From IMG/VR virus record IMGVR_UViG_3300024265_000044: a DNA stretch of 20,000 nucleotides; one strand, written 5' to 3'. Below the pieces are notes generated by a model. It did no database searches and had not been told where the DNA came from. It was given only the letters and a program-made list of their open reading frames with translations. Below, piece after piece: positions 464 to 17,346 of this stretch (position 1 is the stretch's first letter; each line of letters opens with the position of its first letter). The stretch comes from an uncultured virus (IMG/VR IMGVR_UViG_3300024265_000044) (lineage: Duplodnaviria; Heunggongvirae; Uroviricota; Caudoviricetes). The translations under genes and the position numbers were made by a program.

Positions 464-687
464 GCAAGCAACCGACAACCGCGACGAGCTCGCCGATCGA
501 GACCTCGTGGAAAGTTATCCTCAAGTGTCCGAATTGTGACGTCCGGATCGGGCCGATCGCGGACGTCACAACGCAACGGCATGATGATGCGCTCAAGGCT
601 GCGGAAGCCAAGACCGGGATCCCTCGCGAGTGGCTTGAGGTTGTGGCCTACGACGTCGGCGCGCTCGGGCCAACGGTGAAGGCGTGA
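460..687 (+). CDS. Hypothetical protein with CxxC
   Basis: GTG 460 overlaps the upstream TGA; LKCPNCDV; coupled to the next gene. Confidence 0.65.
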   Translation: MSKQPTTATSSPIETSWKVILKCPNCDVRIGPIADVTTQRHDDALKAAEAKTGIPREWLEVVAYDVGALGPTVKA

Positions 688-1121
688 GCAATTACATCGA
701 TCTGACCGGCGCGCGGGTCGGACGCCTCAGGGTATTCGGTCGCGATTTCAGTCGAGGAGCGACGGGCCATGTTCGTTGGCTTGCTCGATGTGAATGCGGT
801 GAGATCGTGAGTCGCGAGGGGCGGCACCTTCGATGCGCGATCGAGAACGATTGGAATTCGGCTTGCCGCAAGTGCCAGAGCATTGGACGGCGCGGGCCCG
901 GTTTCTGTTGCAACGAGTGCGGCCAGAGTGGCCACAACCGAAGCACTTGCCCGATCCTCGCGGGAGTCGTCTCGCGGTTCTGTGGGACATGCGCCGGCCT
1001 CGCACATCGGCGGCCAAGGAATCGCGTTTGCGACTGTGGCGAGGAGTATTACCCGGACCGCGTGCGGTGGTCGCGAGTGTTGGAGCTCCCACGAGATGAC
1101 CGGACGGTGAACCCGGCATGA
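684..1121 (+). CDS. Cys-rich Zn-binding protein: HNH-associated N-terminal module plus CCHC zinc knuckle
   Basis: IDLTGARVGRLRV...WLARCECG module; CNECGQSGHNRSTC = C-x2-C-x4-H-x4-C; further CxxC/CxC; no HNH catalytic motif seen. Confidence 0.75.
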   Translation: MSNYIDLTGARVGRLRVFGRDFSRGATGHVRWLARCECGEIVSREGRHLRCAIENDWNSACRKCQSIGRRGPGFCCNECGQSGHNRSTCPILAGVVSRFCGTCAGLAHRRPRNRVCDCGEEYYPDRVRWSRVLELPRDDRTVNPA

Positions 1122-5829: not shown

Positions 5830-6017
5830 TGAATCGTTCAGAAGAACAAGCGGCTCAAGTGCCGATCTACTGGGAGGTGGGTTCATTTCCGCCAGATTAC
5901 ATTCTGGATAAGCCTGTCGGGTGTGGGCATTGCCACCTCACGTCACGGATGGCGTACGTCGACATAGATGGTTTCATCTTCTGTTCGATGAGGTGTCTCC
6001 ACTGGGGGCGCCGATGA
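5829..6017 (+). CDS. Small Zn-finger-like protein
   Basis: TAATG overlap; CGHC...FCSMRC (TRASH/MYM-like pattern). Confidence 0.6.
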   Translation: MNRSEEQAAQVPIYWEVGSFPPDYILDKPVGCGHCHLTSRMAYVDIDGFIFCSMRCLHWGRR

Positions 6018-6029
6018 ATCGTTCAGAAG
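5829..6029 (+). repeat. 16-bp direct repeat ATGAATCGTTCAGAAG at the starts of two adjacent genes
   Basis: Exact copies at 5829-5844 and 6014-6029. Confidence 0.9.
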
Positions 6030-6634
6030 TCGTAGGCACCACTTTTGGACTCTGGGTGGTCGTTGAACACATCAGCGGTCGGCATGTGCGCGCGCGTTGC
6101 GCCTGCGGTGTGGTTAAGATCGTGCGTTTGGATACTTTGAAGTTTGGGCAAAGTCGCTCTTGTGGATGTTCGAAAGTCACAGGCCATTGGCAATCGTGCA
6201 TCGTATGTGGCGCGCCTGTTTGGATAACTGGCAGAAGGAAGAAACTGAATTCAAGGTTCTGCTCTCTTTCGTGCTCGGTGAAGGATCAACACCGAAAACG
6301 CATTGAGGCTGAACCGGTTGGCGCACGGTTTGCTCGATTCGTTCGTCTGAATGGTGAGTGTTGGGAATGGAGTGGCGCGGTCAACCTCCAAGGCTACGGA
6401 ACATTCATGCGAGACGGGCGAGTCGCGGGACCGCGCGCTTCTGAATTGGCGCATCGTGTTTCATGGACGTTGATCAACGGGCCGATACCGGATGGATTGT
6501 TCGTCTGTCACAAGTGCGACAATCCACCGTGTGTGCGACCAGATCACCTTTTTCTTGGTACACCGGCCGCCAACAACCGAGACAGGTGCAAAAAGGGTCG
6601 TTGCCGTCATCCTGGTCATCAGAGGGCGTTGTGA
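6014..6634 (+). CDS. HNH homing endonuclease (HNH_3 type) with N-terminal Zn modules
   Basis: ECWEWSGA..GYG...AHRVSWTLINGPIPDGLFVCHKCDNPPCVRPDHLFLGTPAANNRD; N-terminal GTTFGLWVV..RCACG..SRSCGC and CIVC..FCSLSC. Confidence 0.93.
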   Translation: MNRSEVVGTTFGLWVVVEHISGRHVRARCACGVVKIVRLDTLKFGQSRSCGCSKVTGHWQSCIVCGAPVWITGRRKKLNSRFCSLSCSVKDQHRKRIEAEPVGARFARFVRLNGECWEWSGAVNLQGYGTFMRDGRVAGPRASELAHRVSWTLINGPIPDGLFVCHKCDNPPCVRPDHLFLGTPAANNRDRCKKGRCRHPGHQRAL

Positions 6635-13060: not shown

Positions 13061-13315
13061 ATGAGCAGGCTCATCGCGTCCGCATGGGATAGCTACAATC
13101 GGGAAGTGTTGCCGCCGACAGCCGGCGACATTCAGCGCATCGAATCCCGGCTTGCTTTCTATGCGGGCGCGGCGGCGCTATTCATCGGCCTCGTCAAGTC
13201 CGTCGGCAACGAGGACGAACCGAGCGCGGACGATCTCGCGATGTTGGACAGCGTCAAGACCGAGCTCCAAGAGTGGAAAGAGGAAGCGAAGCGCGCGGCG
13301 AGGGCGAGGCGATGA
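13061..13315 (+). CDS. Conserved phage hypothetical protein
   Basis: [11 protein letters not shown]...[21 protein letters not shown]. Confidence 0.78.
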
Positions 13316-14283
13316 GCAAGCGCAATCGGAACCTTTTCGAGATCGGCGACGAGGTTGGTGAGCTCACCGTCGAGGCGTTGAGCGAAAAGGATCCAACGAG
13401 GTATGGACGCTTTTGGGATTGCCGTTGCCAGTGCGGCGCGCCACAGGTACGCAGCTCGGTACAGCTCAACGGCGCTATCCGAGACAACACATCGCCGATG
13501 TGTCCTCGGTGTTTGAGCGAATGGCGTCGCGGCATGTCGCTCGAGCGCGACGCGCATCGCCGGAGCGGACTCGCCCGACATTTCGAGACGACGCGCTCAC
13601 TCTATGGCCATGGTTGGGACGAGCGATTTGAGAATGGATATCGAGCGGCGCTTTGCGCGGAGCTCGGTCCGATGGCCGCGCTCGATGAGCCGCGCGGTGA
13701 TGACGTCGAGCCATACAGCGCGCCAAGCACCGGCGGTATCAATTGGCCTGGCCTGTATCCGATGAGCGGTTTCGTTTGGAAGTGTGAGCAGTGCAAGAAA
13801 AAGCGATCGGTCGGTTGGGGTTGCGTCGATTGCATGACGTGGGCTTGTCGCGAGTGCGTGACGGCCGGCAACTGTTGCCGGTGTCTCAACAGGGAGGGGA
13901 CGCTCGAATTTATCGGCAAACACTTCGGCGTCACGCGCGAGCGCATGCGCCAGGTCGAGGCCAAAGCGCTGAGGAAAATGCAGAATCCCAAATGCACGCG
14001 ACTCCTTGCGCCGTTCGTAGAGTTAGACAACGCGGATCGCGTCACGGGCCGGTTCTCGTCGTCGCGCGCGCTGTATGAATACGCCGAGCTCGTTGGCTAC
14101 ACGCCGGCCGGTGCCATTCTCAACGCGATCCGCTTCAACGACCAAGGATGTTTGAAGTTGTTGCGCATGGCCGACAAGCTCACCGCACCGGCGCGGAGGG
14201 TGCTTGTTTTCAAGCTCATCCGAATGAACAGTCGAGAGCTCATCGAGCTATTCACCGAAACCGACAAATTGATCGCGGCCTGA
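13312..14283 (+). CDS. Zn-finger / sigma70 region 4 fusion protein (putative transcription regulator)
   Basis: [30 protein letters not shown] closely matches RpoD region 4.2 ([30 protein letters not shown]); N-terminal [13 protein letters not shown] module; CEQC..CVDC..CREC..CCRC cluster; no region 2. Confidence 0.82.
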
Positions 14284-15155: not shown

Positions 15156-15442
15156 GCATCGCCGATGCTGCCAAGCGGTTGCGCATGACCAAGCGCGGCG
15201 CGCTGGAATACCTGCGCGAGATGGACGAGAAGCACCGGGCCAAACATGGCGCGCTGTTGTTCCGTCGAAGCGCCAAACCCAACGGCAAGCTATGGGTCGA
15301 CATCGCGGTCCTCGCCAAGATCCGGCCGGACAAGTTCGCCGAGCTCACCGAGGTATCGGCGATGGTCGCAATCAACTCGCGCCTCGAGGCCCTCGAGGAC
15401 GAGGTCGAGGACATCAAGCGAGAACGGAAGCCGCGCCGATGA
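15143..15442 (+). CDS. HTH DNA-binding protein (excisionase/MerR-like) with C-terminal coiled coil
   Basis: LSIADAAKRLRMTKRGALEYL...GKLWVD; stop overlaps the MTase ATG. Confidence 0.65.
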   Translation: MQPLSIADAAKRLRMTKRGALEYLREMDEKHRAKHGALLFRRSAKPNGKLWVDIAVLAKIRPDKFAELTEVSAMVAINSRLEALEDEVEDIKRERKPRR

Positions 15443-17346
15443 CGGATTGGGGTTGGCGGATCGAGCTTGGCAATTGCCTCGACGTTTTGGCGATGCTTCC
15501 CGATGAGTGCGTTGACGCCGTAGTCAGCGATCCGCCTTACGGTCTCGGGTTCATGGGCAAGGCCTGGGATCACAGTGTACCGGGGCCGGAGTATTGGCGA
15601 GCGGTGTTGCGTGTCATGAAGCCAGGTGCACACCTCGTCGCGATGGGCGGAACGCGGACGGCTCACCGGCTCGCATGCGCGATCGAGGATGCCGGCTTCG
15701 AGCTCAGGGATTCGATCGCTTGGATTTATGGGAGCGGATTCCCAAAAAGTTTGAATATATCGAAAGCGTTAGCGGATGAAAGATGTGGTTGTGATGAGAG
15801 ATCCAAAGGATCCGAGCCGGTTTTGCAACACGACATGCGACCGGTGCGGAGCGGGGATGTATCGGCGGCCGTGTCGACTGCGAGAGAACCGGGGCAAGTT
15901 TTGCAGCCGGTCATGTCGGAACAAGGTGCACCTAAACACCGGCCCGCGGAAACCGTTGCCGCAAATGCGCGGCGCGAACAACCCAGCGTGGAAGGGGGGC
16001 GTTACCTACCGGAGGCGCAAGGGGAACTACCCGATCTCGGTGAAGTACGTTCGCTGCCCGGCGGAATTGATGACGATGGCGCGCAAAGACGGTTACGTCA
16101 TGGAGCATCGACTGATCATTGCGAGGTTGGCGGGTCGACCGTTGACGCGAACGGAAGTGGTGCACCACGTCGATCACAATCCGATGAACAACAACCCGCC
16201 GAACCTGGAATTGTGGCCGGACAATCGGAGCCACAAGTTAGCGGAGCATGGCCGGCATGTGGAAGGTGCGGCAAACCGCGTATCCCTAGCGGCCTAGGCA
16301 CCGCGCTCAAGCCGGCATACGAGCCGATCATCGTCGCGCGCAAGCCGCTCGACGGCACGGTTGCCGCCAACCTCGAGCGACATGGCACGGGCGCGATCAA
16401 TGTCGACGGGTGCCGGGTCGGGACTGACAAGCGAACATACAAGGGGAGCGGCGTCAGTCACCAACGATACAGCGATGCGGGTGCGGGTCTCAGAGATGGC
16501 CGCGGCGCGGAAATTGAGTTTTCGGCCAACGGTCGTTGGCCGCCCAACTTGCTCCTCGCGCATTTGCCCGAATGTCGGCGGGTCGGGACGAAACGGGTGA
16601 AGGGTGCCCAGAATACTGCGGGGCCGCTTGGCGGTTATTCAGGCAGCGAGGGGAGCTACGAAAGGGGAACGGGGCGCGAGTACGGTGAGGCCGAAACCAT
16701 CTCCGCTTACGATTGCGCCGACGGTTGCCCGGTGCGGGCTATGGGCGAGCAGAGCGGGGAGCGGCCCGGCATGTCGGGCGGTGGCTCCCATGCGCCGGAC
16801 TATCCCGGCGGCATGTTCGGCGGCATCGACGCGCCGCACTTGGCGCGCAACGACTCCGGCGACGCTTCCCGGTTTTTTCCACAATTCGAGCTCGGTGAGA
16901 TGGACGCGCCGTTCCGTTACGTCGCCAAGGCGAGCAGAGCAGAACGCGAGGCCGGTTGCGAGGACCTACCCGCCAAGACGGCGGCCGAGGCGACGCATAG
17001 CAAGGAAGGGCAAGCGCGGCTCGACTCACCGCGCACCGGCGCGGGTCGGACCGCTGAGAGCGTCCGCAACCATCACCCCACCGTCAAGCCGGTCGAGCTC
17101 ATGCGGTGGCTCTGTCGGCTCATCACGCCACCGGGTGGGCTCGTCCTCGACCCGTTTTGCGGATCGGGAAGCACCGGCGTCGGCGCGACCGCGGAGGGTT
17201 TCCGGTTCATCGGCATCGACAAGGATCCGGACTATGTCGCGATTGCGTCGGCGCGCATCACTCACCGGGTCGGCGACGTCGGCGCCATGAAGCCGCCGCA
17301 AGCGCCAAGCAACCACAACCGCGCGCCACAGTTAAAGCTGTTTTGA
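15439..17346 (+). CDS. Orphan DNA methyltransferase, N4C/N6A beta class, 635 aa, with large internal insertion
   Basis: VVSDPPYGL (motif IV) precedes VLDPFCGSGSTG (motif I); WIYGSGFPKS, GTALKPAYEPI, GRWPPN, HPTVKPVELMRWL; ATG 15439 overlaps the upstream TGA. Confidence 0.95.
   Translation: MTDWGWRIELGNCLDVLAMLPDECVDAVVSDPPYGLGFMGKAWDHSVPGPEYWRAVLRVMKPGAHLVAMGGTRTAHRLACAIEDAGFELRDSIAWIYGSGFPKSLNISKALADERCGCDERSKGSEPVLQHDMRPVRSGDVSAAVSTAREPGQVLQPVMSEQGAPKHRPAETVAANARREQPSVEGGRYLPEAQGELPDLGEVRSLPGGIDDDGAQRRLRHGASTDHCEVGGSTVDANGSGAPRRSQSDEQQPAEPGIVAGQSEPQVSGAWPACGRCGKPRIPSGLGTALKPAYEPIIVARKPLDGTVAANLERHGTGAINVDGCRVGTDKRTYKGSGVSHQRYSDAGAGLRDGRGAEIEFSANGRWPPNLLLAHLPECRRVGTKRVKGAQNTAGPLGGYSGSEGSYERGTGREYGEAETISAYDCADGCPVRAMGEQSGERPGMSGGGSHAPDYPGGMFGGIDAPHLARNDSGDASRFFPQFELGEMDAPFRYVAKASRAEREAGCEDLPAKTAAEATHSKEGQARLDSPRTGAGRTAESVRNHHPTVKPVELMRWLCRLITPPGGLVLDPFCGSGSTGVGATAEGFRFIGIDKDPDYVAIASARITHRVGDVGAMKPPQAPSNHNRAPQLKLF
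15776..16297 (+). CDS. HNH homing endonuclease nested in the +1 frame within the methyltransferase
   Basis: CDRCG..FCSRSC, GANNPAWKGG, DGYVMEHRLIIARLAGRPLTRTEVVHHVDHNPMNNNPPNLELW...H; alternative ATG at 15794. Confidence 0.9.
   Translation: MKDVVVMRDPKDPSRFCNTTCDRCGAGMYRRPCRLRENRGKFCSRSCRNKVHLNTGPRKPLPQMRGANNPAWKGGVTYRRRKGNYPISVKYVRCPAELMTMARKDGYVMEHRLIIARLAGRPLTRTEVVHHVDHNPMNNNPPNLELWPDNRSHKLAEHGRHVEGAANRVSLAA

Follow-up and report, generated by a model that had tools for sequence, protein, structure and literature searches.

A candidate zinc clasp at the ends of a hidden HNH cassette within the gene of a phage DNA methylase

Introduction

How can an enzyme remain functional when a second, selfish gene is inserted into its gene and the insert is translated along with it? 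This question is raised by a stretch of 20,000 nucleotides (hereafter the window) from the uncultured virus IMGVR_UViG_3300024265_000044 (Caudoviricetes), the source contig of which is derived from a subsurface metagenome. In the window, the gene of a DNA methyltransferase (15439..17346) reads through an insert (15751..16290), and this insert is spanned by an open reading frame (ORF) for an HNH homing endonuclease (15776..16297) in frame +1 of the methylase. The methylase, the HNH ORF and all their motifs described below lie on the + strand.

The usual view is that selfish endonuclease genes persist in essential or useful genes via removal, at the level of RNA as introns or at the level of protein as inteins. 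An arrangement without either, the ShiLan domain, has been reported: in actinophage PF01555 methylases, a read-through insert conceals an out-of-frame HNH gene (PMC9957025, in its available text, and PMC11855218). The general hidden-HNH arrangement is thus already published, and how the host enzyme copes with the insert was left open there. A sequence-only reading of the window had noticed Cys motifs at both ends of the insert in the methylase frame, and had proposed that they form a zinc site pinning the loop ends together as a structural substitute for protein splicing. Here we followed up this clasp, which is the new element. The best reading of the results, which we regard as reasonably likely, is that a mobile cassette with a hidden HNH gene and a zinc clasp tying off the loop resides in a phage beta-class methylase.

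Results

The last conserved methylase motif ahead of the insert, GFPKS (G100-S104, 15736..15750), and GLGTALKPAYEPI (16291..16329), at which the conserved methylase core resumes, delimit the loop in question. Hereafter, L-numbers denote loci, P-numbers methylase protein homologues, and A1-A4 alignments or profiles. G100, F101, P102 and K103 were invariant in A1 and A3; G285, G287, A289, L290, K291, P292 and E295 were likewise invariant, and a strand was modelled at E293-301. The loop between GFPKS and GTALKP comprised approximately 180 residues in the window, compared with 7-10 in the minimal-loop homologues. The insert was assigned to residues 105-284 of the methylase frame from A1, the loop lengths and the predicted local distance difference test (pLDDT) values of an AlphaFold2 (AF2) model, and its junctions read ...ADE|RCGC and ...PRIPS|GLG. 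Translation of the methylase frame confirmed R-C-G-C at the N-side (R115-C118, 15781..15792, with C116 at 15784-15786 and C118 at 15790-15792) and C-G-R-C-G-K at the C-side (C274-K279, 16258..16275, with C274 at 16258-16260 and C277 at 16267-16269, a CxxCG knuckle), with C228 as the single further Cys between them. The CxC lies within the first 6 codons of the HNH ORF, upstream of ATG 15794, and the CxxC begins 12 nt past the last invariant HNH residue (E151 in A2) and ends 28 nt short of the end of the HNH stop codon. These positions bore out the earlier remark that both motifs lie beyond the recognisable HNH motifs.

The occurrence of such inserts was surveyed from two sides. In the methylase protein search, both anchors were present in 105 of the 120 matches listed, and in 57 of these 105 a CxC started and a CxxC ended a loop of 166-261 residues; many of the homologues at 40-50% identity had the same read-through insert. 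As this search detects read-through forms only, loci were gathered via the HNH protein alone, starting from A2. The resulting set of 108 loci, window included, contained 80 IMG/VR loci of 278 tblastn-confirmed stretches and 27 genome-contig loci. In 88 of them, a methylase ORF with methylase homology on both sides remained open across the HNH gene, which was in its frame +1. Seven others were open and ended by the contig edge, five of which were scored as partial and two (L166 and L177) were open along the entire short contig. L170 was without the C-part, L173 shifted frame, and 11 loci were not read through (L121, L150, L153, L154 and L172, together with the distant L180 and L182-L186). The cassette was hosted by IMG/VR contigs, by metagenome-assembled genomes from many phyla of bacteria, and by some bins of archaea. 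A tblastn search of the window HNH protein against 50,697 phage records gave one match, an uncultured phage, and no actinophage. By this survey, the hidden-HNH arrangement is widespread, far beyond actinophages.

The methylase frame across the HNH gene contained no stop codon in any of the 82 distinct read-through regions, at locus G+C contents of 0.29-0.71. In contrast, 1000 synonymous-codon shuffles per HNH region, in which the protein and the codon usage were preserved, gave means of 1.1-11.3 stops in this frame; for the window the mean was 4.5, and only 3 of 1000 shuffles were open. The 11 HNH relatives without read-through had 1-35 stops in the methylase-equivalent frame, and the third frame had 1-19 stops throughout. 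These results firmly demonstrated dual coding, with selection keeping the methylase frame stop-free across the HNH gene. It follows that translation of the methylase continues across the HNH gene, and an intron or a bypass is excluded as the main route.

The 82 distinct read-through inserts were divided into 16 within an intein, described below, and 66 others. Both CxC and CxxC were found in 55 of the 66, including a distant HNH relative (L181) in which the motifs are possibly due to chance. The Cys motifs at the insert ends exceeded chance, as examined with control windows in 65 distinct non-intein read-through relatives: C.C occurred in 1/65 in the insert middle (72 aa) and in 0/65 in the methylase C-part (60 aa), and C..C in 10/65 and 4/65, respectively. 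The codons at Cys 1-4 were TGT or TGC in ratios of 34/21, 38/17, 34/21 and 10/45 (n = 55). A change between the two flips Val and Ala in the HNH frame, and this alternation therefore identified Cys in the methylase frame as the conserved item. In the 55 sequences, the N-side Cys columns were conserved to at least 0.9, against 0.1-0.3 for their neighbours and the overlying HNH-frame residues; directly at the CxC, the HNH frame had values of 0.1-0.2. In the insert core it was the HNH frame that was conserved (0.8-0.9), and the methylase frame merely where HNH motifs cast their shadow. The C-side CxxC columns were blurred in the MAFFT alignment by length variation and two registers, and motif counts were used there. 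Selection on the four Cys thus acts in the methylase frame, which is firmly shown. Conservation of the terminal motifs in other methylases with nested HNH genes, suggested as a check by the sequence-only reading, was established in 55/66 inserts, in the 57/105 listed homologues and in a mycobacteriophage cassette.

This last cassette, of 232 residues, was present between GFPKS and GTALKP in the mycobacteriophages Optimus, HanShotFirst and SG4. It contained an HNH gene of an unrelated type, also in frame +1, and RCDC...CSWCGLP in the methylase frame. Baka, the flanks of which are near-identical to those of Optimus, had a Cys-free module of 146 residues in place of the cassette. Eighteen phage records, that of Applejack among them, contained the Optimus-type cassette with an identity of 99% or more; the genome announcement of Applejack, in its available part, names an out-of-frame HNH in the methylase (PMC12613952). 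Judging from sequence, the Optimus-type cassette is the published hidden-HNH cassette. In L105-L109, CxC...CxxCGKP was located elsewhere, ahead of GSGFPKS, and the host loop was intact downstream. Portability is therefore firmly shown, i.e., the Cys pairs travel with the cassette. In these loci (e.g., L105:1574-3730), the host motif was partly duplicated (IARFYGD ... LAWVMGSGFPKS) and followed by a normal DVSKAIDK loop.

Two further phages, Abrogate (gp58; L193, 592-1749) and Oogway (gp58; L194, 592-1845), had lost the HNH core and kept RCDC and CSWCGLP, with loops of 83 and 78 residues, respectively. The end points of the two deletions differed and both were in frame, so that these loci appear to be natural minimal-clasp forms after two independent HNH deletions. 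The C-side pair itself existed in two registers, PCAFC in a low-GC clade and xCxxCG 12-14 residues later (the window, L104, L140 and L151). Both clasp halves were absent in L113 and L116 and both present in their respective sisters L129 and L135, i.e., the Cys pairs were lost jointly. Four changes on the HNH tree were required to explain the Cys-free forms, at least three of which were forced by well-supported branches.

The 16 distinct loci of the other group (L119, L139, L148, L149, L155, L166, L167, L169-L171 and L174-L179; e.g., L169:953-1969) carried an HNH gene of the same family, in frame +1 and read through, inside an insert at YG|SGFPKS. This insert begins with CLSEDTE..., contains a block TDQIVSRNHRC, and ends with ...VWCxxVPTGAFVARRNGKVFxTGN|S. 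When a profile of 14 aligned inserts of this type (A4) was run against PDB sequences, it matched the AceL NrdHF intein (6zgq, E 3.3e-8) and the Spl DnaX mini-intein (7cfv, E 0.0024); Pfam and NCBIfam scans of L169, L179, L176 and L119 did not detect an intein. The YG|SGFPKS inserts thus look like working class-1-like inteins, with an off-frame shadow of the HNH gene in the endonuclease slot. An out-of-frame HNH in a methylase intein is not reported in the available passages of a 2025 preprint on inteins (bioRxiv 10.1101/2025.01.02.630785).

Against the window, the A4 match was restricted to profile positions 133-292, corresponding to residues 122-267, exactly between the Cys pairs, which suggests that, as modules, the Cys pairs stand in for the two Hint halves. 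The layout of the family is therefore Hint-N, linker and Hint-C in one branch, and CxC, linker and CxxC in the other. The clasp and intein branches were separated on the HNH tree with a support of 95% (Shimodaira-Hasegawa-like approximate likelihood ratio test). We considered the window insert itself as an intein and rejected it. Hint blocks A, B, F and G were not found, A4 matching the linker only, and Pfam reported no Hint domain. The junctions ADE|RCGC and PRIPS|GLG provide neither an N-terminal Cys or Ser nor a C-terminal Asn followed by Cys, Ser or Thr. The earlier notion of a substitute for splicing gained support here, in that sister copies of the HNH gene, likewise in frame +1, reside in a real intein at the adjacent motif of the methylase.

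In the AF2 model of the window methylase, pLDDT was 80 for residues 111-120, containing CxC, fell to 32-49 over residues 121-270, and rose to 87 for residues 271-280 (WPACGRCGKP). The positions flanking the C-side motif had values of 48 before it and 64 after it (281-290). In the Cys-free L113, a weak N-side helix (107-119) had pLDDT of 51-57 and the C-side end 44; the alignments behind these metal-free models differed in depth, with 57 rows for the window and 28 for L113. A complex prediction for the end peptides 103-134 and 255-290 together with zinc, made with the A3 alignments, scored 0.11 against a mark of 0.32, which speaks neither for nor against a contact. The low values over 121-270, and a middle conserved as the shadow of the HNH frame alone, supported the earlier description of the loop as extruded junk.

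The host gene starts at ATG 15439 and stops at 17344-17346, encoding 635 aa (15439-17343); an upstream ATG in the open frame (14989) was rejected as the start. The product matched the N6/N4 DNA methylase family PF01555 (E 1e-26), and a Foldseek search with the AF2 model retrieved the beta-class folds CcrM (6pbd, E 2.4e-9), M.BceJIV, MboIIA, PvuII and RsrI. Translation and A1 located the motifs DPPY (15529-15540) and DPFCGSGST (17149-17175). The window methylase was 35-40% identical to those of mycobacteriophages. Compact Cys-rich units were seen elsewhere in the family. Two uninterrupted methylases (L025:1789-2001 and L069:1253-1444) had a knuckle KCDxCGKW-8aa-PCxCP in the same loop, and P0007 and RitaG gp62 (L190:259-1773), both without HNH, had a CxxC...CxC unit between FMGKxWD and LRVLKPGG. 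Putative Cys4 knuckles are thus recurrent in this methylase family.

The HNH ORF encodes 173 aa from ATG 15776 or 167 aa from ATG 15794, with the stop TAG at 16295-16297, and was 49-56% identical to four relatives at the same position (A2). Residues 111-149 of the 173-aa form matched HNH_3 (PF13392; E 9.1e-6, 25.7 bits against a curated cut-off of 24.8), and this membership was further supported by the invariant catalytic residues H124, H125, N137 and H147. The catalytic core (16163..16246; H124, H125, H128, N133, N137, N144, H147, K148 and E151 in the HNH frame) was invariant in A2, as was an N-terminal Cys4 zinc finger (15836..15916; C15, C18, C37 and C41 in the HNH frame). The finger matched zf-FCS weakly, under the cut-off (E 0.0071). 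The G+C content dips to 0.44 at 15700-15800, the 5' junction of the cassette, against approximately 0.60-0.70 elsewhere in the window, and the HNH-frame stops and start codons are located in this stretch.

The neighbourhood is phage-like, with HNH genes, a DnaC-like loader and a minor tail protein. Three more ORFs of the window (684-1118, 5921-6631 and 13273-14280, the third with a sigma-like tail) matched HNH-endonuclease PHROGs (phrog_374 and phrog_826), so that homing-type nucleases are abundant in this region. The methylase homologues P0013 and P0066 contained a LAGLIDADG domain (PF00961) besides the clasp insert. The methylase family is a hot spot of several homing elements, as was likewise found for actinophage methylases (PMC9957025, available text). 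Among the loci without read-through, two low-GC relatives (L150:1545-3093 and L153:1103-2701) had the methylase in separate ORFs around the HNH gene, the N-part stopping just before it, with 18 and 35 stops, respectively, in the methylase-equivalent frame; they may represent the same invasion with the gene split, or copies that have decayed. On a Curtobacterium plasmid record (L172:1140-2639), a longer free-standing HNH ORF of the intein branch was found directly downstream of an uninterrupted methylase (553-1725), a layout that recalls the arrangement in Tiff81 and Sashimi (PMC11855218).

Discussion

The results can be arranged into a mechanism by which the enzyme might endure its insert. A ShiLan-like homing cassette (15751-16290) has been inserted right after GFPKS of the methylase, and its HNH gene would be translated separately in frame +1. 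Ribosomes read through the insert in the stop-free methylase frame kept by selection, and the enzyme consequently bears about 155 extra residues, an off-frame shadow of the HNH gene that is predicted to be disordered. The cassette also encodes two Cys pairs in the methylase frame, CxC at its start and CxxCG at its end. By analogy with the CD4/CD8-Lck clasp, the four thiolates probably bind one zinc ion, which would join the two pairs at the loop base. The tied base would then let the halves of the methylase fold as in the relatives with a 7-residue loop. Zinc binding, the contact between the pairs and the benefit for folding are what we infer, and the analysis agreed with the clasp interpretation in part: conservation and selection in the methylase frame speak for it, and strict necessity does not hold.

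Several points weigh against the clasp. Seven of the 66 inserts had no Cys motif (L095, L096, L100, L113, L116, L128 and L131) and four were one-sided, two with only an N-side CxxC (L092 and L106) and two scored as C-side only (L134, and L157, in which the CxC lies further upstream). The loop can therefore do without a clasp, which is not obligatory. That Abrogate and Oogway still possess the Cys pairs may simply mean that the middle was deleted recently. The pair test for coupled loss, with two independent pairs on starred branches, gave a sign-test p of 0.5 and was underpowered. The unequal depth of the AF2 alignments and the metal-free modelling also count here, as does the knuckle of L025 and L069, which suggests that the Cys4 unit of the window might serve the methylase itself.

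This last point leads to the main rival, in which the four Cys form a zinc knuckle working for the methylase, for example in DNA contact at the start of target recognition, and the HNH loop merely hangs from it. In beta-class methylases, motif VIII is followed by a stretch that runs into the recognition domain. The uninterrupted L025 and L069 have their CxxC-CxC unit in the very loop concerned, and P0007 and RitaG gp62 have one in another loop of the family. In L025 and L069, however, the order of the pairs is reversed (CxxC and then CxC). Moreover, the clasp moves with the HNH gene to another site (L105-L109), comes and goes with the cassette (Optimus as compared to Baka), and has no Cys counterpart in the minimal-loop homologues. 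We therefore consider this explanation unlikely, though worth keeping in sight. The related idea of an insertion into an ancestral zinc knuckle of the host was set aside, given the replacement of the whole loop between Optimus and Baka, the relocation in L105 and the reversed order in L025 and L069.

The Cys codons could instead have been kept for reasons of the nucleotide sequence or the HNH gene, such as start or stop signals, RNA structure or homology of the homing site, rather than for the methylase protein. TGT followed by G creates GTG in the HNH frame, and a GTG start has been proposed 18 bp into the ShiLan insert (PMC11855218); in addition, the HNH ORF has the CxC at its 5' edge and the CxxC close to its stop codon. 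On the other hand, TGC, which yields GCN and no start, was used in 17-21 of 55 sequences at Cys 1-3 and in 45 of 55 at Cys 4, and the residues that separate the Cys are variable. Between the CxC and the start of HNH homology there are 1 to 136 nt, two registers exist for the C-side pair, and both pairs persist after deletion of the HNH gene. This possibility thus appears very improbable.

Equally slight is the chance that the Cys pairs take part in a self-excision or cleavage chemistry, thioester-based and intein-like without a Hint fold, to leave a mature methylase free of the insert. Inteins do employ Cys nucleophiles, and in modular terms the cassette stands where the Hint halves would be, with the A4 match falling exactly between the pairs. 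Nevertheless, there is no space for a Hint fold and no counterpart of blocks A, B, F and G, the C-side junction has neither Asn nor Gln ahead of a nucleophile, Pfam detects the methylase alone, and Cys-free inserts persist. The weakest alternative, removal of the insert from RNA by a group I intron, in which HNH genes are often carried, or its skipping by the ribosome, as known for T4 gene 60, with an incidentally open frame, is scarcely credible: neither would select against stops, yet 82/82 frames were open as compared to the shuffles, the HNH ORF fills the insert and leaves no space for a ribozyme core, and an Rfam search of 15300-16800 up to E 10 found no intron family, its sole row, IRES_Bip (E 3.6), being dismissed as chance.

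If the zinc clasp is the right reading, a broader proposal can be made, which we offer tentatively, as one that could well turn out either way and to which we lean slightly less than to its opposite. Homing cassettes may have evolved harmlessness without splicing, by an open host frame and a zinc clasp in place of the Hint halves, which would have arisen repeatedly and, inside a single HNH family, alternated with a true intein at one and the same methylase motif. The repeated origin is proposed because of the two C-side registers and the unrelated mycobacteriophage cassette. The clasp would then likely be a third way, besides introns and inteins, to spare the host gene. The Cys pairs would offer a metal-tied loop base as an answer to how the host enzyme copes with such an insert. 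As sister elements with the same HNH look like working inteins, the step between a spliced and a tolerated insert is open to study within one family. Protein engineering might likewise profit from a small self-contained clasp by which a protein carries a loop of about 150 foreign residues.

Among known systems, the ShiLan domain is closest. The window shares with it the PF01555 host, the stop-free read-through, the HNH gene in another frame, no detectable intron or intein, and a predicted loop; the cassette of Optimus, HanShotFirst and SG4 occupies the same GFPKS-GTALKP gap as that of the window. The ShiLan authors likewise found no intron and no intein, and concluded that the enzyme may be left undisturbed by the hairpin-like loop that was predicted (PMC9957025, available text, and PMC11855218). 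These papers, in their available main text, mention no Cys motifs in the methylase frame, and zinc for the HNH frame only. The published assignment of the HNH gene is to the third frame, whereas our translation placed that of the mycobacteriophages in frame +1. The window HNH differs in combining HNH_3 with an FCS-like finger, in contrast to the classic HNH after an HTH-like part in ShiLan, and in the tblastn search of phage records its cassette showed no sequence homology to the published one; it is of the same kind and of a different lineage.

Inteins resemble the window insert in being inserted in frame at a conserved motif and spread by a homing endonuclease, and differ in possessing the Hint blocks. 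Inteins with the endonuclease in another frame or strand have been reported (bioRxiv 10.1101/2025.01.02.630785, available text). The window also resembles free-standing homing genes in that an HNH gene lies inside a conserved enzyme gene without intron or intein, the split form of which is seen in L150 and L153. Free-standing homing endonuclease genes, e.g., in T4-like phages, split the host gene into two ORFs, whereas the host gene of the window is read through. For the clasp itself, the closest parallel is the zinc ion shared by CxCP of CD4 or CD8 and CxxC of Lck, which joins two otherwise unstructured peptides (Kim et al. 2003, as cited in PMC7355011, available text). Both systems combine a CxC(P) pair with a CxxC pair on a separate segment; CD4/CD8 and Lck are two proteins, whereas the pairs of the window, with their putative zinc, are about 155 residues apart in a single chain.

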